Notes under the pieces: model-generated
Seen by the model: the letters and a program-made list of their open reading frames with translations, nothing else
Database searches by the model: none
What the model was told of the DNA's origin: nothing
Made by a program: the position numbers and the translations under genes
IMG/VR virus record: IMGVR_UViG_3300017761_004426
Span: 1 to 33,377 of that record
DNA: 33,377 nt
Reading direction: 5' to 3' (one strand)
Origin: a virus
Taxonomy: Duplodnaviria > Caudoviricetes
Part shown: piece after piece, positions 85 to 14,856 of the stretch
How the letters are laid out: the number at the start of each line of letters is the position of its first letter
How positions within the stretch are numbered: the first letter of the stretch is position 1

Positions 85-918
85 ATGCCTAAACCCAAGC
101 CAAACACCGCTTCAACCATCCCAATCCATTGCAGTTACGCCCGCCTTGCGGACGTAACTTCGCTCGTCGCCAACCCCCGCAACCCAAATAAACACTCAGA
201 TAAACAGGTGGCGCTCCTCGCAAAAGTCATCCGCCATCAAGGGTGGCGCGCGCCGATCACGATCAGCAAGCGAAGCGGATTTATTGTCACCGGCCACGGG
301 CGACTAGCCGCCGCTCTCCTCCTCCAAGTTGAGCAGGTGCCAATTGATGAGCAGGATTTTGCCACGGAGGCCGACGAGTGGGCGCACCTCGTCGCAGACA
401 ACCGCATTGCCGAGCTGGCCGATGCTGACAGGGGGATGATTGCCGACCTGCTCGGCGAGCTTGACGCCGGGGGGCTTGATATGGATCTGACGGGGTTTGA
501 CATGGAGGCGTTAGAGGAGGCCCTGGCAGAGTCAGATGTGCCACAACAAGATGACATTTATACAAACAAGATTGTCGCTCCAATCTACGAGCCTAAAGGC
601 GAGCAACCTCCAATCTCAGATCTCATCGATAGGAGCAAGACAGAGGAACTGATGAAGGGGATCAAGGCGGCTGACCTCCCGAACGAGGTCGCTGAGTTTC
701 TTAGATTTGCCGCGGAGAGGCACACTACGTTTCACTTTCGCAACATCGCAGAGTTCTATTGTCACGCAGACAAGCCGACTCAGGATCTCATGGAAAAATC
801 TGCGCTCATTATCATCGACTTTGACAAGGCGATTGAGAATGGATTCGTGCATTTAACGGAAAAACTTGGGGCATTGGCAGACCAACAAAACGAGGAGGAC
901 GAAGACAATGGAGAATAA
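85..918 (+). CDS. ParB/Sulfiredoxin-like N-terminal domain fused to a C-terminal domain typical of phage glycosyltransferase-associated proteins
   Basis: ParB-N motifs NPRNPNKH, GWRAPITI, IVTGHGRL, ADNRIAE; C-terminal IYEPKGEQP...AAERH...IAEFY...SALIIIDFDKAIENG; stop overlaps the next GT gene. Confidence 0.85.
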   Translation: MPKPKPNTASTIPIHCSYARLADVTSLVANPRNPNKHSDKQVALLAKVIRHQGWRAPITISKRSGFIVTGHGRLAAALLLQVEQVPIDEQDFATEADEWAHLVADNRIAELADADRGMIADLLGELDAGGLDMDLTGFDMEALEEALAESDVPQQDDIYTNKIVAPIYEPKGEQPPISDLIDRSKTEELMKGIKAADLPNEVAEFLRFAAERHTTFHFRNIAEFYCHADKPTQDLMEKSALIIIDFDKAIENGFVHLTEKLGALADQQNEEDEDNGE

Positions 919-1789
919 TTTTTGCGTCTTCATCCTAACGCATGGCAGACCTGAACGCGTACACACTTACGACAGCTTAATGAAGGCTGGCTATACCGGG
1001 AAGGTGTTTATCGTCATCGATGACGAGGATAAGACTGAAGAGGAATATCGAAAGCGATTTGGCGAAAAAGTTCTGCAATTCTGCAAGAAGGAATGGGCAG
1101 AGAAGACAGACGAGGGCGACAACTTTAACCACCGCAAGGCGATTGTCTACGCTCGGAATGCTTGCTGGGAATTAGCGAAGCAAGTTAAGTGTGATTACTT
1201 TGTGCAGTTCGACGACGACTACACAAATTTCATGATTCGATTTGATTCAAAACTAAAGTTCCAAAATGGAAGAATAACACAAAACATTGATGCCGCATTA
1301 ACTGCGCTTTTGGATTTTTACAAATCCATCCCTGCAACAGCAATTGCGTTTTGCCAAGGGGGAGATCACATAGGAGGAAGGTACAAAGGACTTGGAAGCC
1401 TTGAAATAAAAGATGTAAGATTGCGAAGGAAGTGCATGAATAGTTGGTTCTGTGACGTTAACAAACCCTTTAAATTTGTGGGACACATGAACGAAGACGT
1501 GAGTGCTTACGTTCTAAATGGGTTGCAGGGACATCTGTTTTTCACAGTCATGCAAATGATGTTAGTGCAGAAACCAACCCAAACAACCGCAGGGGGGATG
1601 AGCGACCTTTATTTGTCATCCGGCACTTACGTAAAATCATTTTACTCGGTCATGCAATCCCCTTCATGCGTAAAAATCGGGCAACTTAAAGATCCTCGGA
1701 ATCCAAGCGGATGCCGTATCCATCACAAAATCAACTGGCACAATGCTTGTTCAAAAATTCTTAGAAACAAATGGAGGAAGGCACGATGA
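908..1789 (+). CDS. GT-A fold glycosyltransferase resembling TET-associated (TAGT)/phage DNA base glycosyltransferases
   Basis: FCVFILTHGRP first strand, YARN, YFVQFDDDY (DxD), CMNSWFC, MNEDV, TAGGMSDLY, YVKSFY; ATG at 908; AT-richer than structural genes. Confidence 0.75.
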   Translation: MENNFCVFILTHGRPERVHTYDSLMKAGYTGKVFIVIDDEDKTEEEYRKRFGEKVLQFCKKEWAEKTDEGDNFNHRKAIVYARNACWELAKQVKCDYFVQFDDDYTNFMIRFDSKLKFQNGRITQNIDAALTALLDFYKSIPATAIAFCQGGDHIGGRYKGLGSLEIKDVRLRRKCMNSWFCDVNKPFKFVGHMNEDVSAYVLNGLQGHLFFTVMQMMLVQKPTQTTAGGMSDLYLSSGTYVKSFYSVMQSPSCVKIGQLKDPRNPSGCRIHHKINWHNACSKILRNKWRKAR

Positions 1790-2553
1790 AAACTAAAGTC
1801 GTAATCCCGTGGCACAACGCCGATCAACTAGACATCTTCCTTCATGCATGGAGCATCGACCAAGACGATGACAGGGCAATTTTTCAACAAGATAAGACGA
1901 AGGAAGGATGTGCGAGAACGAAGAACCGAGGAATCACTGCCGCGATAGAATCAGGAGCCGACATTGTGATCATCCTCGACGATGACTGCTTTCCTGAGCA
2001 GGGGCAGACCTTTGGCGAGTTTATCGCGGCGCATGAAATCGCGCTCGAGCCTCAGTCGGTAGAGATGTTCGAAGTGGTGACAGATCCGCCAAGCCGGGGA
2101 ACGCCGTACTTCAATCGAACGATCGAAATGCCAGTCGCGGCTTCAATGGGGTTCTGGACGCACGTCGGCGATTACGATGCGCCGGGTCAGCTTGTCCATG
2201 GCGCAACCAAGCTGATGAAGTTTAGTCGAAAGGCAATTCATGGGCGATACTTTCCGCTGTGCGGAATGAACCTTGCTTTTCGTGTTGCCGAGTGGCCGTG
2301 GTGCCAGTTTATCGACGTGCCGAGGTTCGATGACATCTGGCAGGGATTCATTTGGCAAAGACAGGCATTTTTTGAGGGCAAATGCTTTAATCTTGCGGGC
2401 CCACTCGTTCGACATTCAAGGCAAAGTAACGTTTGGCAAAACCTCCAAGACGAGTCAAAAAATCTAGAGAGGAACGAAACTATCTGGCAAGACATCTACC
2501 GCTTACCGATAGGTGATTACGATCAGATCAAAACTGCTCTTGGTCTTCAATGA
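1786..2553 (+). CDS. GT75/RGP family protein (UDP-arabinopyranose mutase-like)
   Basis: LDDDC, RGTPYFNR, GFWTHVGDYDAPGQL, FPLCGMNLAF, RFDDIWQG, HSRQSNVWQNL are colinear with plant RGP/UAM motifs; ATGA overlaps at both ends. Confidence 0.85.
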   Translation: MKTKVVIPWHNADQLDIFLHAWSIDQDDDRAIFQQDKTKEGCARTKNRGITAAIESGADIVIILDDDCFPEQGQTFGEFIAAHEIALEPQSVEMFEVVTDPPSRGTPYFNRTIEMPVAASMGFWTHVGDYDAPGQLVHGATKLMKFSRKAIHGRYFPLCGMNLAFRVAEWPWCQFIDVPRFDDIWQGFIWQRQAFFEGKCFNLAGPLVRHSRQSNVWQNLQDESKNLERNETIWQDIYRLPIGDYDQIKTALGLQ

Positions 2554-3098
2554 GCGCCGCCACCCCAACCCCCGACCCGCTAACGTGGCCGAGCGACCGC
2601 ATGGCGCGTCTGCTCGACATGACCACGCGCCGCATGAACCAGCTCGTGAGCGAAGGCGTGCTTTTCCGCGAAGAGCGCGGGCGTTACTCGCCCCTAAAAA
2701 ACGCGGTTGCATACATCCGCTATCTGCGTGACAGGCGTGACCAAGCTGGCACCGCGTCAAATGAAGATGACGACAAAGCGACGAGACGCGCGCTCAACGT
2801 GGCACGCCACGACGAGATCCGCCTAAACATGGAAGTCACCGCGCGCACCCGCATCCCGCTCGACCTAATCGAAGAGATTGACGAGCGCCTGCACTCTAAC
2901 ATTGCGGGCATCCTCAAGAGCAGGCGAAACAAGACGCTCGACGAGGAAGCTTTGTCTGACATCTTCGGCGAGCTTCGGCAAGTCGGGCCAACCCTCCGCG
3001 CGTGGCATCAGCAAGTGACCGCCGCCGAAGTGCCCGTTGTCGCTACGCCTGTCAACCCGCCCGCCGAAGCAGACGATGACGAAGACGACGACGAATGA
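2550..3098 (+). CDS. terS: Terminase small subunit (Nu1-like winged HTH)
   Basis: ARLLDMTTRRMNQLVSEGVL...GRY...AVAYIRYLR; ATGA-coupled to the large terminase. Confidence 0.85.
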   Translation: MSAATPTPDPLTWPSDRMARLLDMTTRRMNQLVSEGVLFREERGRYSPLKNAVAYIRYLRDRRDQAGTASNEDDDKATRRALNVARHDEIRLNMEVTARTRIPLDLIEEIDERLHSNIAGILKSRRNKTLDEEALSDIFGELRQVGPTLRAWHQQVTAAEVPVVATPVNPPAEADDDEDDDE

Positions 3099-5020
3099 GC
3101 AACGCCACCACCATCCGCCCCCACGAGATCCGCGCAATCTCTCGCTCCTCAGCGGTGGAGCTTCGCGCCCGCATCGCGGCGCGTTGCTACGCGTTCTCTT
3201 CGCTCGTCCCGCCGGAGGAGTGGGCGCAGGACATTTACCGCCTCCCCACCGGCGGACGGTTTCGCTGGGAGTTTGCGCCGTATACTCGCGCGATGTTCAA
3301 GAGCATCTTCGACCCCAACTCCATCGAAACTTCGATGCAACTTTTTAGCCGTGGGCTCAAGTCAACGGTCATTCTTCTTGCCATCGGTTACGTGATCGAC
3401 CAAGCACCGCGGCGCATCCTCAGCTTGTGGCCAACCAATGGACAAGGGGAGAAGTGGAGCAAGGACAACTTGTGCGGGGAGTTGCTGAACTGCACTCCCG
3501 CCCTTAGCTACCTCGGCAACGCCACGGGCAAACGCATCACAAGCAACACCCTCCTCCACAAAGAATTCCCCGGCGGGCTCATCGACATCTTCGGTGCCAA
3601 CTCCCCAGGCGATATGCGACGCGCGAAAGGATCGTTCCTCTACGCTGACGAAATCGACGCAATCGGCACCGAGCAAACCGACGAAGGCGACCAGCTCGCG
3701 ATCTTCAATAAACGCGGCGACGAATATCCCGACACCATCCGCGTATTCTCCTCCTACCCTTCGGTGCAGGGGCTCAGCAGAATCAACGCGAGGCTGAAAG
3801 ACTCAGACCACAACGAATGGCATTCGACGTGCGTGGAGTGTGGGGGCGAACCGTTCGTCATGCATCGGAATCAACTCCGCTATGACATCGCATCCCCAGA
3901 AGGTGCCCGCCTTGAATGCCCGCGGTGCTCCGCTTTGCTTACCGACCGCCAACGCTATGACATGGCACACCGCCAAGGCTACGACAACTGGCGACCGCGC
4001 AACGCCTTCCGTGGGAAGCGTGGATATCAGGCGAACGCGCTCCTCTGGCCTCACCCAGTAGACGAGAAAAAATACGCGGGGGGCTGGCTGCAGTGCATCG
4101 CCCAACAAGAGATTGACGCGAAGCAAAGCGACAACCCAAGGCGATCGATGCGCGTGCTTGTCAACACCGTGGACGCGGAACCTTGGGATCCTACCGAAGA
4201 CAGCGAAAAGCCGCCAGAGTGGCGGGAGATCTACGAAGCCCGCGAACACTACACCGACGCGCCGCGTGATGCGCTCTTTCTCACCGCGTTCGTTGACGTC
4301 CAGCTCAATCGCCTCGAATGCGGATGGCGGGCGTGGGGAAGGAACGAGGAAAGCTGGGGGCTCGACCACGTGGTTTTAGATGGACACGTTCGGATGGCAG
4401 ACGTTTGGAAATCTTTACGCAAGCAACTCGCCCGCAAATTCCCGCGCGAAGGTGGCGGGTATCTGACCCTTGGCATGGCGCTCGTTGACGGCGGCCACTT
4501 CGCCGAGGACGTTTACCGTTTCATGCAAGAACTTTCGACGAATCCGATGCCGGGGGTGAGCGGGAAATGTCGGGCGAGCAAGGGCGTCGGGCAAGCCAAC
4601 CACCCGATTATTGACCGCAAATGGAAGACGGTGGCGCGCAACCTTAAAGGGTATCACATCGGCACGTGGGAGGCGAAAGATCGCATCTATGAGCGGCTCA
4701 AGGTGAAGGCGAAAGACGGCGAGACGCCCGAAGGCATCATGCACTTCAACCAGCGATTCGGCGAAGAATATTGCCAGCAGTTGACCGTTGAGACGGTGGC
4801 GATTAGCTACGAGCGAGGGGAGGAGGTGCGGAAATATTTAAACGCGAAGCAGGCGCGAAACGAAGCGATAGACATTGAAGTTGGCAACCTCGCCGCCTTC
4901 CGCCTGCACCCGCGCAACATGGACGCGCTTGAGGATGAGCTTGAGAATCAGCAACCCATCAACGCGCCTGCGCCTCCTCAGGCGGCGAGCGTTATGCGGG
5001 GTGGCGGGTGGGGGCTTTAA
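3095..5020 (+). CDS. terL: Terminase large subunit, lambda gpA family
   Basis: 641 aa; APY motif, Walker B LYADEID, CVEC/CPRC zinc pair, nuclease motifs FVDVQ..RLE, VDGG, SKG, RNEAID. Confidence 0.95.
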   Translation: MSNATTIRPHEIRAISRSSAVELRARIAARCYAFSSLVPPEEWAQDIYRLPTGGRFRWEFAPYTRAMFKSIFDPNSIETSMQLFSRGLKSTVILLAIGYVIDQAPRRILSLWPTNGQGEKWSKDNLCGELLNCTPALSYLGNATGKRITSNTLLHKEFPGGLIDIFGANSPGDMRRAKGSFLYADEIDAIGTEQTDEGDQLAIFNKRGDEYPDTIRVFSSYPSVQGLSRINARLKDSDHNEWHSTCVECGGEPFVMHRNQLRYDIASPEGARLECPRCSALLTDRQRYDMAHRQGYDNWRPRNAFRGKRGYQANALLWPHPVDEKKYAGGWLQCIAQQEIDAKQSDNPRRSMRVLVNTVDAEPWDPTEDSEKPPEWREIYEAREHYTDAPRDALFLTAFVDVQLNRLECGWRAWGRNEESWGLDHVVLDGHVRMADVWKSLRKQLARKFPREGGGYLTLGMALVDGGHFAEDVYRFMQELSTNPMPGVSGKCRASKGVGQANHPIIDRKWKTVARNLKGYHIGTWEAKDRIYERLKVKAKDGETPEGIMHFNQRFGEEYCQQLTVETVAISYERGEEVRKYLNAKQARNEAIDIEVGNLAAFRLHPRNMDALEDELENQQPINAPAPPQAASVMRGGGWGL

Positions 5021-5030
5021 AATTAATTCA

Positions 5031-5059
5031 TTGCAAAGAGGGGAGAGAATCGGCAAGGT
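5031..5059 (+). promoter_or_regulatory. Putative promoter TTGCAA-N17-CAAGGT for the helicase cassette
   Basis: Same spacing and consensus as motifs at 6695, 10028, 15653 and 22572; ATG at 5070. Confidence 0.45.
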
Positions 5060-5069
5060 TCTATCGCTT

Positions 5070-6179
5070 ATGACAAAGCCTATTGAACTGCGTGACTATC
5101 AAAAAACCATAGTCGCCTCCACCTTAATCGCCTTACAAACTCACTCGCGGGTGGTTGTGGCTTGCCCGACAGGATCAGGGAAAACCGTCATTGCCATCCA
5201 CGGAATCCTTCCCAACCTGCAAGGGAAAACGGCTTGGGTGACGCACCGAAAAGAGCTTGAAAAGCAGGTGCATGAATACGGGGCAAACCTCAGAGTGTCC
5301 CTAGTGCAACGGAAAATCTTTGGCGATTACCAGAATATCATTATCGACGAGGGGCACCACGTTTGCGCGGATCAGTATCGGCAAATCCTAGAAGACCACC
5401 CTTCGGCAAAGATTATTGCTCTCACCGCAACCCCTTATCGGCTTGATGGCGTCGGGCTTGGATCATGCGGATTCACCAAGATCATCCACGGGCCAGACAC
5501 CTACGACCTCACCGAAGACGGCACGCTTTGTCGGGCCCGCGTCTACATTCCAAAATCAGAACACACGGCGGCGTGGTCGCCTGATGCCGCGGCAAGCCGA
5601 ATTGCCAAAACCGAATTCACTAAGGGGATTGTCTTTTGCCGATCAGTGGATGAGGCAAAGGAACTCGCGCAACTCCTCACCGCCGCAGGAATAAAATCTG
5701 CCAGCATTGACGGGATGACAGACCCAGAAAAACGGGGGCAACTCTTCAAGGGATTTGCGAAAGGAAAGCTAAAGATCATCTGCAACCACACTATCTTCAC
5801 CGAAGGCGTCGACGTTCCCGACGTGGATTTGATTGTTCTGAACCGCCACACTTTGAGCCGGTGCCTATGGAAGCAGATGATCGGGAGAGGAACTCGAAAC
5901 GCCCCCGGCAAGCAGGAATGCACGGTGCTAGACCTCGCGGGCAACGGCGTCTTCCACGGATCAATTTACGACCGAGAAATCTACGACCTCAATGGCAAGG
6001 TCGAATCTACCGAATCGCGAACACTCACCGAGACAGGGGGCGAGGACGAAACAACTTATGACCACAACCAAGGAGAAGAACTAAAGGAATGGAAACCACA
6101 ACCGAAACCAATCAGGCTAATCGCGAGCTTACAAAGACTGAAATTCAAATCGTTGTTGCACAGATTCAGGATCGCCTGA
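5070..6179 (+). CDS. Superfamily II (DEAD/DEAH-like) helicase
   Basis: Q motif LRDYQ, Walker A PTGSGKT, DEGH, TATP, TEGVDVP, QMIGRGTR; ATG at 5070 preferred over the ORF-track start inside terL. Confidence 0.92.
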   Translation: MTKPIELRDYQKTIVASTLIALQTHSRVVVACPTGSGKTVIAIHGILPNLQGKTAWVTHRKELEKQVHEYGANLRVSLVQRKIFGDYQNIIIDEGHHVCADQYRQILEDHPSAKIIALTATPYRLDGVGLGSCGFTKIIHGPDTYDLTEDGTLCRARVYIPKSEHTAAWSPDAAASRIAKTEFTKGIVFCRSVDEAKELAQLLTAAGIKSASIDGMTDPEKRGQLFKGFAKGKLKIICNHTIFTEGVDVPDVDLIVLNRHTLSRCLWKQMIGRGTRNAPGKQECTVLDLAGNGVFHGSIYDREIYDLNGKVESTESRTLTETGGEDETTYDHNQGEELKEWKPQPKPIRLIASLQRLKFKSLLHRFRIA

Positions 6180-6631
6180 TGCGCGTGGCGAAGGCGCAGA
6201 GGGATTATATCGAAGACATTGAACTGCACTGGCTTCAGCACCCTATCGATGAGGAGGTTGAAAGAGATGAATACCCAGAAGAGGAAAAAAAGACTCAGCT
6301 AAGGAAGAAATATGACATCCCTGAAGGTGTGCATTTATTTATGGATGGGGTTGACTCGGCTCTTTTGGACTCTGATGCGAAAGCCTGCAAACCCTACATC
6401 GTAGCGTTTGTGAACGGGAAACTAACGGGGGAAACGTTGTATCACTTGCTGTTTTTCTTTGAGGAAGTCGGCGAATGCGATTACGGGTGGATCCTTGTTG
6501 AACGCCCAATCGGATTCTATGACGCGCCGAGTGATGAAGACTTTGAAGAAATAATGACCGAGATCCGATCAATCGGAACGCGATCAAGAACGAAGGCTAA
6601 AAACCTGCCGAAGCTGACAAATTTAAACTAA
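6089..6631 (+). CDS. Hypothetical acidic protein, second gene of the helicase cassette
   Basis: 180-aa ATG ORF overlapping the helicase 3' end by 91 nt, followed by a terminator. Confidence 0.65.
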   Translation: METTTETNQANRELTKTEIQIVVAQIQDRLMRVAKAQRDYIEDIELHWLQHPIDEEVERDEYPEEEKKTQLRKKYDIPEGVHLFMDGVDSALLDSDAKACKPYIVAFVNGKLTGETLYHLLFFFEEVGECDYGWILVERPIGFYDAPSDEDFEEIMTEIRSIGTRSRTKAKNLPKLTNLN

Positions 6632-11392: not shown

Positions 11393-11782
11393 ATGCCACA
11401 ATCACCCGACATCAACGGAGAGAATACGGTCATCGCCTTCCTCCCTCCCACCGCAATCACCGCCGCGACAACCACTTACGCAGGCGTTGACCTGCAAGCG
11501 TTCGTGGGCAATGTGCTCGTTACCCTTAATTGGGTGCGACCAAACGCCGCGGCTGGCACGCTCGCCTTGGCGATCCTCGACAGCGCGGACAACACAACCT
11601 TCACCGCCAACGCGTTGACGGGCATCATCTCTGACGTCACGACCGCGACAAGCGGGTGCGTCAAATGCGCGATCGACACCAAAGCCGTCAACCGCTACGT
11701 CCAGCCAAAGCTGACCTGCACCGGCACCACGGCAACGTGGACGGCATCTTTAGTGATTGCCGGATTGAAATCGATCGTCTAA
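11393..11782 (+). CDS. Putative head decoration (auxiliary capsid) protein
   Basis: 129 aa, Thr/Ala-rich, directly after the capsid gene; GVDL, DSADNTTF and RYV motifs typical of this position. Confidence 0.65.
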   Translation: MPQSPDINGENTVIAFLPPTAITAATTTYAGVDLQAFVGNVLVTLNWVRPNAAAGTLALAILDSADNTTFTANALTGIISDVTTATSGCVKCAIDTKAVNRYVQPKLTCTGTTATWTASLVIAGLKSIV

Positions 11783-11809
11783 ACCTCGGTTTGGTTATTT
11801 GTCATAACT

Positions 11810-11839
11810 GGCGCAGTGCCGAAAGGCACTGCGCCTTTT
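11810..11839 (+). terminator. Rho-independent terminator after the capsid and decoration genes
   Basis: Perfect 11-bp stem GGCGCAGTGCC-GAAA-GGCACTGCGCC followed by TTTT. Confidence 0.9.
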
Positions 11840-11883
11840 GCTTGCCATCATGCTTCCCTTGTGCGAGTAAATCGCTCCTCCCA

Positions 11884-13260
11884 ATGACCACCACCGAAGC
11901 GCGAAAAAAGAACCGAAAGAAGCTTGGCGAAGCTGAAAAATTCTCACGAGCTGACGACCGAAGCGGAGCGGAAAAGATCTGGCGAGCGCACCTAAAAGAC
12001 GCCCCCGAAGATGCCGACGTGCTTTTCAACGTTGGCGTGTGCATCCAACGCCGAGCGCAGGAATCCGCAGAACGCCATGAAGCCGCCACCTTTTTTGATC
12101 GCGTCGTTTCTTCGCCCGAAGCGACGATGGAGCGCAAAGCCGACGCGCTCAACAACCTCGGGTTGCTCATGGAATCCATTGGTGAAAGCGAAAAGGCAAT
12201 GGTGGCTTATGGCTTCGCGCTCAAGATGTGGCCCACCCACAAAACCGCGCGCGTCAACCTCGGCGATTCGCACCGGCACTTCGGCAATTTTCACCAAGCG
12301 GACGAGGAATTTAGGGTCGTGCTCAGCCAAGACGAAGCTTCACCCGACGCTCACTTTTGCGCTGGGATGATCGCGCTTTTATTGGGTGACTACAAACGCG
12401 GGTGGGAGGAATACCGATGGCGGGTGAAGGTGCCAAACTACCAGACAAAACCTTTCATCACCGACAAGCCGAAGTGGCAAGGCGAACCGCTTGACGCCAA
12501 GACAATCATCCTCACCGAAGAGCAGGGGTTCGGGGACTCGTTTCAATTTTTGCGATACGCCCGATGGTTTAAGGCGCAGGGGGCGCGCGTGGTTTTTCGC
12601 GCTCAGCCTGCACTCCACCGCATCGCCGAAGGCTTCGACGGCATCGACGAGATTTGTCACCTCGGCCACGAACCCACCTTCGACTTCCACCTTCCGCTAA
12701 TGGACGCCCCCCACTTCGCCGAGACGACATTAGCAACCATCCCCACAGCCCATTGTTTGCGCATAATGCCACGCTGGGAGCGTTATTCGTTGCAGACGAG
12801 TAATCTACTTAGGCGGCGCATCGGCATCGTGTGGGCGGGCTCACCCGCTCACGGCAAAGATAATGCGCGATCGATCCCCGCCGAAGCCTTCCAGGCGATG
12901 ATCGACGCCAACCCGCTTCACGATTTTTACTCTCTTCAAGCAGGCCCGAAGCAACCCGAGATTCAGAACCTCCGCGGCATCACGAAAGATCTTTCGCTCG
13001 GCATCAAAGACTGGACGACGACCGCGCAAATTCTCTCGTGCCTTGACCTCCTCATAAGCGTCGACACCGCGTGCGTTCACCTCGCCGGGGCACTCGGTCG
13101 CCCCGTGTGGATGCTCACCCCTTACTCCCCCGATTGGCGGTGGCTACTCGCCCGCACAGATTCGCCGTGGTATCCACGCCTTCGCCTCTTTCGACAACCC
13201 GCCGCAGACGACTGGCAAACCCCGATCAAACAAATCTCCGATGCACTACAGGCTTTATAA
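11884..13260 (+). CDS. TPR-repeat protein fused to a GT9-like glycosyltransferase
   Basis: TPR helices (VLFNVG, ALNNLG, ARVNLG); EQGFGDSFQFLRY, IGIVWAGSP, FYSLQ, LDLLISVDTACVHLAGALG, DWRW, SPWYP..RLFRQ. Confidence 0.92.
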   Translation: MTTTEARKKNRKKLGEAEKFSRADDRSGAEKIWRAHLKDAPEDADVLFNVGVCIQRRAQESAERHEAATFFDRVVSSPEATMERKADALNNLGLLMESIGESEKAMVAYGFALKMWPTHKTARVNLGDSHRHFGNFHQADEEFRVVLSQDEASPDAHFCAGMIALLLGDYKRGWEEYRWRVKVPNYQTKPFITDKPKWQGEPLDAKTIILTEEQGFGDSFQFLRYARWFKAQGARVVFRAQPALHRIAEGFDGIDEICHLGHEPTFDFHLPLMDAPHFAETTLATIPTAHCLRIMPRWERYSLQTSNLLRRRIGIVWAGSPAHGKDNARSIPAEAFQAMIDANPLHDFYSLQAGPKQPEIQNLRGITKDLSLGIKDWTTTAQILSCLDLLISVDTACVHLAGALGRPVWMLTPYSPDWRWLLARTDSPWYPRLRLFRQPAADDWQTPIKQISDALQAL

Positions 13261-13840
13261 CTTCCTCCTCCAACGCGCCGCGGCTGACATCTACCCTGAA
13301 CCACCTTCGTCCATCCATTCGCAAATCACCGGGCAGATGGCCCCGCTTTTCGTCGCTACCCTACCCAAAAACGCGCAGATTCTCGACATAGGGTGTGGGC
13401 AAGGGGGAGCGTTGCAACTCTTCGCTGTGCTACGTTGTGACGCCGTTGGAATTGGCATCGGCGACGAAGACTTAGAAGCGTGCCGAGCGAAGAATCTCAA
13501 CGTTTTCAAGATGGATCAGAACGAAATGAGTTTCCCCGAAAACTACTTCGATGGCGTTTGGGCGCGGCACGTTCTCGAGCACTCGCTCGCCCCGCTCTTT
13601 ACGCTCACCGAAATCGCTCGCGTGCTCAGGCCAAAGGGCAGGCTCTACGCTGAGATGCCCGCCCCAAACACATCATGCCGCCACGAATCCAACCCCAACC
13701 ACTACTCAGTCTTCGGGAGTGAAGCGTGGGCGGAGTTGCTTTTCAAGGCAGGGTTCGACGATGTGCAGATGGTCAGCATCCCGCTCGAAACTGGCGCAGG
13801 AGCAGACGAGTATTACGCGTTCACCGCTACCAAATTATGA
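13241..13840 (+). CDS. Class I SAM-dependent methyltransferase (small-molecule or sugar type)
   Basis: ILDIGCGQG, FDGVWARHVLEH, RVLRPKG. Confidence 0.9.
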   Translation: MHYRLYNFLLQRAAADIYPEPPSSIHSQITGQMAPLFVATLPKNAQILDIGCGQGGALQLFAVLRCDAVGIGIGDEDLEACRAKNLNVFKMDQNEMSFPENYFDGVWARHVLEHSLAPLFTLTEIARVLRPKGRLYAEMPAPNTSCRHESNPNHYSVFGSEAWAELLFKAGFDDVQMVSIPLETGAGADEYYAFTATKL

Positions 13841-14856
13841 TCAAGATTTTCTACGCGGGCCAACCGGGACAAGGCTTCGGATGGGGGGTGGCAAATCATT
13901 ATTTGCGCACCGAGATTGCTCGCCTCACTCCCCTTGTCGATATCCCAGAGAAAGCCGACGTGGTTGTAATGCCACTCGCAAACCACGACCTCGACCCAGC
14001 AACCCGAGAGCGCGCGCGAATCAACCTCGCCATCACGTTTTTTGAGTCGCAACTAGGGGAGCGAGCAAGGGAAAACGCCCACCGATACAACGCTGTTTTT
14101 GCGGGCTCTTCGTGGTGCGTTGCTCGCCTTGCCGAGCGTGATATTCACAACACCTCTCCGCTCATTCAAGGGGTTGATCGGCGAGTTTTCAAATGGGCAC
14201 TTCCTCGCCCACGTGACGGGCACTTCCGCATCTTCAGCGGCGGGAAATTTGAGTGGCGGAAAGGGCACGACCTCGTGATCGCCGCCTTCCGTCGCCTCAT
14301 CGAAACTCACCCCACCGCGCACCTTGTTTGCGCATGGCACAACCCGTGGCCCGGCTTATTCGCGACCATGGCAAACTCTCCGCATATCGACACCGCCGCG
14401 AACGGCGGGACGCAAGAGCAATTCTTCGCAAACCTCCTCCTCATCAACGGCATCCCGCTCCACCGCTTCACCATCCTTCCGCAACTCACCCACGGGCAAC
14501 TCGCCGCCGAAATGAGCGCAACCGACTGCGGGCTTTTCCCCAACCGATGCGAAGGCGGGACGAATTTGGTGGCGATGGAATACGCATCAATCGGCAGGCC
14601 GATCGTCGCCAATGTGCTCACAGGGCACGCCGATATCCGCGACGCGATCACTCACAAAATCTTCGCCACCGAGGATTCGATGGGGTGGGCGGTGCAGACC
14701 ATCGAAGAAATCCACGCGAAGCTCGTCACCGCCGCGTCGGTGGAGCCAACGCCGATCCTCACCGCCCCCGTCTGGGAGTGGTCAACTGCCGCGCGCAAGA
14801 TCGTTGAAACCGCGCAGGCAATTGACCTTCAAACGTGGCGCTGGCACAATCTCTAA
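13837..14856 (+). CDS. GT-B (GT4-like) glycosyltransferase
   Basis: GFGWGV, QGVD, GKFEWRKGHD, FPNRCEGGTNLVAME (EX7-8E-type motif); ATGA overlap with the methyltransferase. Confidence 0.9.
   Translation: MIKIFYAGQPGQGFGWGVANHYLRTEIARLTPLVDIPEKADVVVMPLANHDLDPATRERARINLAITFFESQLGERARENAHRYNAVFAGSSWCVARLAERDIHNTSPLIQGVDRRVFKWALPRPRDGHFRIFSGGKFEWRKGHDLVIAAFRRLIETHPTAHLVCAWHNPWPGLFATMANSPHIDTAANGGTQEQFFANLLLINGIPLHRFTILPQLTHGQLAAEMSATDCGLFPNRCEGGTNLVAMEYASIGRPIVANVLTGHADIRDAITHKIFATEDSMGWAVQTIEEIHAKLVTAASVEPTPILTAPVWEWSTAARKIVETAQAIDLQTWRWHNL
14822..14850 (+). promoter_or_regulatory. Putative promoter TTGACC-N17-CACAAT
   Basis: Sigma70-like elements with 17-nt spacing; ATG 14859 shortly downstream. 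Confidence 0.5.

Follow-up and report, generated by a model that had tools for sequence, protein, structure and literature searches.

A compact GT75-family protein coupled to a ParB-TAGT cassette in a phage packaging operon: a candidate source of furanose donors

A tailed-phage contig of 33,377 nucleotides (IMG/VR record IMGVR_UViG_3300017761_004426, Caudoviricetes; analysed over its full length and called the window below) carries at positions 1786 to 2553 an open reading frame (ORF) that belongs to the GT75/RGP family by profile, fold and most of its active-site residues. It lies in a packaging operon, directly behind genes for a ParB-like protein and a TAGT-family glycosyltransferase. We propose, with a probability of roughly one half, that this compact GT75 protein acts as a mutase and supplies a furanose donor to the upstream TAGT, which is predicted to be bound by the ParB-like partner and would place the sugar on phage DNA before packaging. 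The proposal builds on the family, fold and conserved active-site residues of the protein, on its operon, on the conservation of the cassette and on a swap with an unrelated mutase, all observed here. Publications are cited by accession, and what is said of them refers to the parts of their text that were available.

A compact viral branch of the GT75 family

The ORF is a single open frame of 255 residues on the plus strand. Its ATG overlaps the TAGT stop codon (ATGA, 1786-1789) and its own stop overlaps the start of the terminase small subunit gene at 2550; through these overlaps it is translationally coupled to both flanking genes. An earlier reading made from the letters alone (the sequence-only reading) had placed it in a phage packaging operon, and the small subunit gene is indeed followed by that of the large subunit. 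The six GT75 motifs named in that reading were all found, in the order it gave: DDDC (1978-1989), RGTPYFNR (2095-2118), GFWTHVGDYDAPGQL (2149-2193), FPLCGMNLAF (2251-2280), RFDDIWQG (2323-2346) and HSRQSNVWQNL (2413-2445). A shadow ORF was ruled out by conservation (824 homologues among 966 candidates) and by purifying selection, with a nonsynonymous divergence (dN) of about 0.2 and saturated synonymous divergence (dS) in 3/3 pairs with the window protein.

The Pfam RGP profile (PF03214) matched with an E value of 8.4e-9 and 35.5 bits, above its cut-off of 23.8; no other Pfam profile matched at E <=0.1, and all 14 homologues scanned also exceeded the cut-off. A PDB search with the single sequence was weak (E 0.03); with a profile of 70 close homologues the E value was 4e-6, and a profile of 75 sequences including longer relatives (A2) reached OsUAM2 at 1e-42 and MtdL at 2e-40, matching no protein besides UAM2 and MtdL among 177,635 PDB sequences. 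The AlphaFold model (pLDDT 93.3) has the GT-A fold, including the core and the C-terminal helix typical of GT75, though its C-terminal region is shortened. It aligned with OsUAM2 (8cid) at Z 21.2 (rmsd 3.2, 239 residues) and with MtdL (7xpu) at Z 21.0 (rmsd 2.8, 231 residues), the next GT-A chain following at Z 14.3, and the top seven Foldseek rows were all MtdL or UAM2. Assignment to GT2 was rejected: no Pfam GT2 profile matched at E <=0.1, GT2-like folds lay 7 Z units below GT75, and PHROG glycosyltransferase matches were weak and N-terminal only. Profile search, structure prediction and residue mapping bear out the earlier family assignment, profile and fold both giving GT75 and not an unrelated GT2 family.

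The accompanying picture of a mostly plant and algal family does not hold, since the characterised MtdL and Hyg20 are bacterial, CAZy lists bacterial and archaeal members (PMC9937993), and the RGP profile also matches in Haloferax volcanii. GT75 in phages has also appeared in print before, under auxiliary genes (PMC12016548). A profile search returned 709 cluster representatives at E <=0.001; among the best 150 of these listed, the top matches were short forms like the window protein and most others were 300-400 residues long. In a quick tree of 53 rows, a long branch (SH-aLRT 100) set 36 short viral proteins apart from the rest, and by this comparison the window protein is a member of a compact, 255-residue viral subfamily.

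The analysis covered 45 viral loci with a GT75 relative, a count that includes near-duplicates and two copies with a protein identical to that of the window. Among 50,697 records of cultured phages no short GT75 was found, only three distant matches. A weak GT75-like match (E 7e-3) was seen in Synechococcus phage Sf-CH8 (L291), in a gene annotated as hypothetical (SfCH8_159) within an island of heptose and glycosyltransferase genes. Cellular genomes gave three GT75 loci. The one in Haloferula luteola matches a provirus record (L049 / L040, 8001-8738) and holds a short GT75 beside DUF5131, without an adjacent TAGT; a short Planctomycetota bin contig in the cellular set carries the full cassette described below. 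Haloferula luteola belongs to the Verrucomicrobia, and these two loci are a weak hint at hosts in the Planctomycetes-Verrucomicrobia-Chlamydiae (PVC) group. No fusion of GT75 to a partner was found among 413 longer candidates, which is weak evidence, and the extra length of one 404-residue protein (P0076) is a low-complexity tail only. NCBIfam holds no model for the GT75, TAGT or ParB-like protein of the window cassette.

Active-site residues

Residues of MtdL, a GT75 GDP-L-galactopyranose/fucopyranose mutase (PDB 7XPU/7YUA), were mapped through profile A2, with roles taken from PMC9937993. Conservation was counted over 34 short viral proteins, one of each near-duplicate pair being left out, and over an alignment of 70 sequences (A1). 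MtdL D109, D111, R159, D195, R257, D260, H287 and R289 correspond to D65, D67, R104, D129, R180, D183, H210 and R212 of the window protein, and each of these eight is kept in 34/34 short viral proteins. In MtdL, D109, D111 and H287 bind manganese, R159 is the glycosylated arginine and proposed nucleophile, and D260 is the proposed base. The DxD-plus-histidine set of manganese ligands is present as D65-D66-D67 with H210 (D66 in 26/34), and the glycosylated arginine has its counterpart in R104, with aspartate partners D129 and D183 and the phosphate-binding R180. The sequence-only reading had both arginines of R-x6-R kept; it placed their codons correctly (2095 for R104, 2116 for R111), but only R104 is conserved (70/70 in A1 and 34/34 viral loci, against 57/70 and 14/34 for R111). 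At two further sites the window protein has Gly (MtdL S228), as AtRGP2 does, and Pro (MtdL T13), as UDP-using members do, residues that lean towards UDP as the nucleotide. The protein likely acts as a metal-dependent mutase, with one required residue replaced, as discussed below.

MtdL and Hyg20 are among the closest known enzymes, and the window protein has the fold and the eight active-site equivalents in common with MtdL. It differs from MtdL in length (255 against 376 residues, at about 20% identity), in the residues at T13, S86, D87, S228 and Q229, which become Pro, Cys, Ala, Gly and Met, and in genomic setting, an antibiotic cluster for MtdL and a phage packaging operon here. In the window protein two of the three MtdL dimer-interface sites are hydrophobic (W217, L220) and the third is S224, a position that is Ala in 20/34. 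With the plant RGP/UAM proteins (PF03214; OsUAM1, AtRGP2; OsUAM2, 8CID) it shares the Pfam family, the fold, the DDD motif, the RGxP arginine, a Gly at the G216 site and a Pro at the base-selecting site. In contrast to them, it has no Ser at the S91 site, it is missing the last helices (about 40 residues at the C-terminus) along with about 30 residues of its nucleotide-binding domain, its substrate is probably not arabinose, and the short viral members stand on their own long branch.

The ParB-TAGT-GT75 cassette

The sequence-only reading of the context missed the upstream TAGT and ParB-like genes, which carry most of its meaning. The TAGT matched PF20691 with 115.5 bits against a cut-off of 27.5, and its DxD motif (D102-D104) is invariant in 22/22 sequences. 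Its model (pLDDT 69.6) resembles generic GT-A folds (best Z 13.1, rmsd 3.8, 183 residues aligned), and these fold matches gave no clue to the acceptor. A TAGT lies directly upstream of GT75 in 25 of the 45 viral loci and within 3 kb in 27, with a ParB-like gene ahead of it in 24 of those 27, the other three ending at a contig edge. Among the 18 loci with no TAGT nearby, six hold a long, distant GT75 and three break off within 300 bases on the upstream side. The cassette sits before packaging genes of the gpA, Terminase_4/TerL and Terminase_6 types (133/174 neighbour representatives scanned); its presence before at least three terminase families suggests that it moves as a unit. GT75 partners two TAGT subfamilies that are about 20% identical to each other.

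Seen from the TAGT side (best 80 of 297 plus best 80 of 284 TAGT loci), a ParB-like gene lies upstream in 139 of the 150 loci with room for one, and GT75 is present in 27/160, most others going straight into terminase genes (86/154 picked representatives scanned). Besides GT75, the slot behind TAGT holds a flavin-dependent UDP-galactopyranose mutase (UGM; L117, L147), NAD epimerases (L098, L101, L149, L181, L175, L186) or methyltransferases. Other genes inserted in this slot encode a phosphatase-cytidylyltransferase fusion (L127-L129), radical SAM proteins (L023, L159, L199) and sulfotransferases (L033-L035, L147, L209), and some cassettes have arrays of up to four TAGT copies (L025, L028, L030, L033); arrays and tailoring genes together suggest oligosaccharide and sulfated products. 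On a quick TAGT tree the GT75-linked TAGTs cluster (9 changes against 24.7 when shuffled), although this clustering is inflated by a choice of loci that favoured TAGTs resembling the GT75-linked ones, and related rows tend to have a common label. GT75-linked rows are 8/9 in the clade of the window TAGT and 11/14, plus the UGM row, in the other clade.

ParB-TAGT homologues occur in 34 phage records. TAGT homologues were noted in cultured small phages or prophages of Lactobacillus (c5, Ld17, phi jlb1), Haloarcula (HHTV-2), Nocardia (NTR1), E. coli and Salmonella, many with an adjacent ParB-like gene. No description of the ParB-TAGT-GT75 cassette was found in the literature searched; the study that defined TAGT (Iyer et al. 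2013) and the supplements of the Pyle preprint lay outside that search and may list such operons. The available text of PMC12704722 and PMC12373910 contained nothing relevant.

A profile of the ParB-like protein (A7) matched ParB structures at E 4e-10, a match confined to profile positions 7-100, and its invariant columns (Y, F-L, R-H, D) all fall in the C-terminal part, residues 150-270 of the window protein encoded at 85-918. In two loci (L004, L008) this C-terminal domain stands before TAGT alone, without the ParB domain. Complex prediction for the C-terminal domain with TAGT scored 0.82, the best of three controls reaching 0.01; the mark used for this score is reached by 116/157 solved complexes against 2/215 mismatched pairs. 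The runs agreed in at least 94% of contacts, with a partner pLDDT of at least 84. The C-terminal domain is thus predicted to bind TAGT and could be a subunit of the enzyme or have a chemistry of its own; an ESM Atlas search with it returned unnamed viral clusters only. ParB-like proteins are known to activate DNA-modifying enzymes of phages (PMC13229309), and a ParB role in steering modification during packaging has been suggested (PMC8256090). In the ParB-dependent phage T-dioxygenase systems, as in the window, the modifying enzyme has a ParB-like neighbour made up of a nucleotide-binding and a C-terminal domain (PMC13229309), whereas the client here is a glycosyltransferase and its binding a prediction only.

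Exchange with a flavin mutase and probable identity of the sugar

In L117 a UGM gene directly follows TAGT in a ParB-TAGT pair, with the same ATGA overlap, and L147 reads ParB, TAGT, sulfotransferase, UGM, gpA terminase. The L147 TAGT shares 69-71% identity with the TAGTs of L144, L151 and L152, which themselves precede GT75 and a homologous sulfotransferase, and it nests among GT75-linked TAGTs (SH-aLRT 100 and 97; quick tree). UGM was found in 0/39 GT75 records, and RGP in 0/5 records scanned, both UGM records among them. GT75 and flavin UGM, unrelated enzymes both associated with this ring contraction, therefore alternate beside one TAGT lineage, and the case for a mutase role leans chiefly on this alternation. 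From the UGM side, TAGT lies within 5 kb in only 1/80 viral UGM loci (80 of 584), so the UGM-TAGT pairing is rare.

One cassette (L018) has a galE gene (TIGR01179, 419 bits against 262) directly before ParB-TAGT-GT75, and together with the UGM exchange it points to UDP-galactose as the substrate. The plant GT75s AtRGP2 and OsUAM1 convert UDP-galactopyranose (PMC9937993). If the protein is a mutase, gene context somewhat favours galactose or a GalE-made relative as its sugar and makes arabinose a poor candidate, galactofuranose being more likely than arabinofuranose in the donor. The interconversion of UDP-arabinopyranose and UDP-arabinofuranose put forward in the sequence-only reading is accordingly not favoured. 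Its broader suggestion, that the phage either makes its own furanose donor or uses the fold as a transferase, stands in its first half, for which profile, fold, residues and context speak; the transferase is less likely.

Layout of the window

The linear viral contig of the source record is 49% complete and starts 84 bases before the ParB-like gene, the first of the operon (Table 1). The remaining window is that of a tailed phage, with gpA terminase, portal, protease-capsid fusion, tape measure, endolysin and replication genes. A DEAD/ResIII-type helicase and an acidic protein of no known kind are encoded at 4875-6631, between the terminase and the head-tail joining and portal genes. At 11656-14856, between capsid and head-tail genes, lie genes for a TPR and GT9-like protein, a class I SAM methyltransferase and a GT4-like protein, candidates for virion-protein glycosylation. 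This cluster was considered as a fixed partner of GT75 and rejected, its GT9 part matching in 1/39 GT75 records, that of its own genome.

Table 1 Genes and sites of the packaging operon in the window
Feature	Positions	Strand	Basis or remark
ParB-like protein	85..918	+	PHROG 620 E 4.5e-40; N-terminal ParB/Srx domain; at the C-terminus, near residues 150-270, a conserved domain with predicted TAGT binding
TAGT-family GT-A glycosyltransferase	908..1789	+	ATG at 908, frame open from 866; Pfam PF20691 E 4.1e-33; PHROG 842 E 9.7e-74; likely user of the furanose donor
Ribosome-binding site GGAGG (1773-1777) ahead of the GT75 ATG, and ATGA overlap coupling TAGT to GT75	1773..1789	+	Sequence
Compact GT75/RGP-family NDP-pyranose mutase-like enzyme, 255 residues	1786..2553	+	Profile, fold, residue mapping
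R104, equivalent of MtdL R159 (autoglycosylated/nucleophilic Arg)	2095..2097	+	Profile alignment to 7yua; role from PMC9937993
Terminase small subunit	2550..3098	+	PHROG 57 E 1e-6; ATGA overlap with GT75
Terminase large subunit, lambda gpA type	3095..5020	+	Pfam GpA_nuclease E 6e-52, GpA_ATPase E 1e-42

Proposed mechanism, acceptor and alternative explanations

In the proposed mechanism a host UDP-pyranose, most likely UDP-galactopyranose, would enter the window GT75. By analogy with MtdL, D67 and H210 would hold manganese, D183 would deprotonate R104 and R104 would attack C1, after which the ring would reopen and close through O4 to give the furanose. The UDP-furanose would then be passed to the TAGT encoded directly upstream, a step that the gene context makes quite probable, and this TAGT, with its predicted ParB-like partner, would probably attach the sugar to phage DNA before packaging. 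DNA is a reasonably likely acceptor and the weakest step of the explanation.

The phage TAGTs described so far transfer sugar to a hydroxymethyl group or to a sugar already in place (PMC13390438). Phage DNA glycosyltransferases that need a neighbouring epimerase have been described (10.1101/2023.12.21.572611), and a predicted UGM occurs in a DNA-glycosylation cluster of Pootjesviridae (PMC13326640). Such clusters (subclass II glycosyltransferase plus epimerase of Pyle et al., the Pootjesviridae 5hodC cluster, T6-type TAGT) share with the window cassette the logic of a glycosyltransferase beside a donor-making enzyme, the TAGT family, and a terminase and ParB nearby. They differ in that a TET dioxygenase with a C5 methyltransferase, or a thymidylate synthase homologue, supplies the hydroxyl, none of which was found for the window cassette, and the donor enzyme here is a GT75 mutase, not a flavin UGM. 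The main text of the Pyle preprint, as far as available, contains none of the terms 'mutase', 'GT75' and 'furanos'.

Several observations weigh against the proposal. MtdL D87 and AtRGP2 S91, which lie next to the C4-OH of the sugar, are each needed for mutase activity (PMC9937993), and the D87 site is A43 in the window protein by sequence alignment, at the border of a deletion of about 30 residues. It is Ala in 23, Gly in 10 and Ser in 1 of the 34 short viral proteins and Ala in 68/70 of A1, compared with S 27, D 15, A 8, P 4 and G 3 in 57 longer homologues. The middle Asp of DDD is Gly in 8/34. Alanine beside the deletion implies a different pocket; it would lower the case for an active mutase and leaves family membership intact. 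The exchange of mutases rests on two UGM loci, both fragments (10% and 29% complete), and TAGTs inside the GT75 clades at L053, L133 and L135 have neither mutase within their fragments. TAGT is missing at 12/39 short-clade viral loci (three of them cut short upstream), several of which adjoin O-methyltransferase or GT2-like genes, and 133/160 TAGT loci are without GT75. On the acceptor side, the 39 GT75 records (five at least 90% complete, of which G030, at 93%, has the full cassette) gave no Tet_JBP match, the positive control L169 matching, one thymidylate synthase (PF00303), in a record without TAGT, and only two C5 methyltransferases. The window strongly under-uses GGCC, CCGG and GCGC (z -15, -13 and -11), an avoidance of palindromes that points to restriction pressure on the phage and would fit poorly with full protection from restriction. 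The TAGT relative GREB1, lastly, is reported to glycosylate protein (PMC7968844).

L169 (6103-8325) is the sole case among the neighbours scanned in which ParB-TAGT is followed by a P-loop kinase 3 and a Tet_JBP dioxygenase, and the window also under-uses GTAC, GGAC/GTCC and GGTC/GACC (z over the whole range -15 to -8). The complete, 31.8-kb Lactobacillus phage c5 (L290, 90-1713) has the order cos, ParB, TAGT, small genes, terminase; no thymidylate synthase and no TET turned up in it. With no hydroxymethyl- or hydroxy-pyrimidine enzyme found, the sugar may go onto an unprepared site (an exocyclic amine or the backbone), or the base may be prepared by an undetected or host enzyme. A bolder and doubtful extension makes ParB-TAGT a phage enzyme of two subunits and wide distribution that would attach sugar straight to DNA, at the backbone or at a base amine not prepared beforehand, without a hydroxylation step, and makes the slot behind it a sugar-variation module (minimal GT75 or flavin UGM, GalE, sulfotransferases, methyltransferases). 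In that case the DNA of this phage would be galactofuranosylated through a new kind of linkage chemistry.

The furanose made by the same mutase could instead end on protein, with TAGT, or the genes at 11656-14856, glycosylating virion, packaging or host proteins. The missing base-priming enzyme, the protein O-GlcNAc transferase activity reported for GREB1, the second glycosyltransferase cluster and the restriction-site avoidance would all fit this, as would the TAGT-free loci among GT2-like and O-methyltransferase genes, which resemble a Corndog cluster proposed to modify capsids (PMC4351075). We consider it unlikely, however, because that second cluster does not travel with GT75, phage and trypanosome relatives of TAGT act on DNA, and an obligate ParB-like partner recalls DNA-modifying systems. 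A transferase role of GT75 itself, in which the arginine-sugar chemistry or an open GT-A site adds sugar to the TAGT product or to an arginine of another protein, seems improbable. GT75s do release UDP and autoglycosylate (PMC9937993), the short form has lost residues in both the N-terminal domain (about 30) and the C-terminal part (about 40) and has Ala at the D87/S91 site, and extra TAGT copies occupy the same slot in some loci. On the other hand, two cassettes have a flavin mutase with no transferase fold in place of GT75, and one of the two belongs to the same TAGT lineage; R104, D129 and D183 are invariant, and their equivalents fill the acceptor side in MtdL; self-glycosylation is the only kind described for the family (PMC9937993).

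The plant-type Gly and Pro at the S228 and T13 sites would also suit a UDP-arabinopyranose mutase as in plants, leading to arabinofuranosylated DNA, and some GalE-like enzymes also make UDP-L-arabinose from UDP-xylose. We hold this to be quite improbable: no UDP-xylose synthase exceeded the NCBIfam cut-off among five epimerase-like neighbours scanned, and the displacing enzyme is a UDP-galactopyranose mutase. Arabinofuranose is known on phage DNA, but as D-arabinofuranose made by another route, from ribulose 5-phosphate (PMC13326640). Very improbable, finally, is a chance position in the packaging operon, with a gene that either serves host surface glycans as an auxiliary metabolic gene or encodes an inactive scaffold of the AtRGP5/OsUAM2 kind. 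One paper lists phage GT75 among the auxiliary genes of carbon metabolism (PMC12016548), inactive members exist (PMC9937993), and the distant homologue of phage Sf-CH8 sits in a sugar-gene island; yet the equivalents of His287 and Arg257, lost in the inactive AtRGP5 (PMC9937993), are invariant in the short viral proteins, and translational coupling is joined by the same gene order before at least three terminase families.

Significance

The phage DNA glycosylations in the literature covered all start from a hydroxylated pyrimidine, whereas the window cassette pairs a transferase with a likely donor mutase and no priming enzyme was detected. The ParB-TAGT core is present in small cultured phages (Lactobacillus c5, Ld17 and phi jlb1; Haloarcula HHTV-2), which makes its target accessible to bench work. 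The 255-residue GT75 represents a naturally occurring minimal form of this family, for which the mechanism is still unsettled, and it does without one residue considered necessary; it might also provide NDP-furanoses without a flavin.

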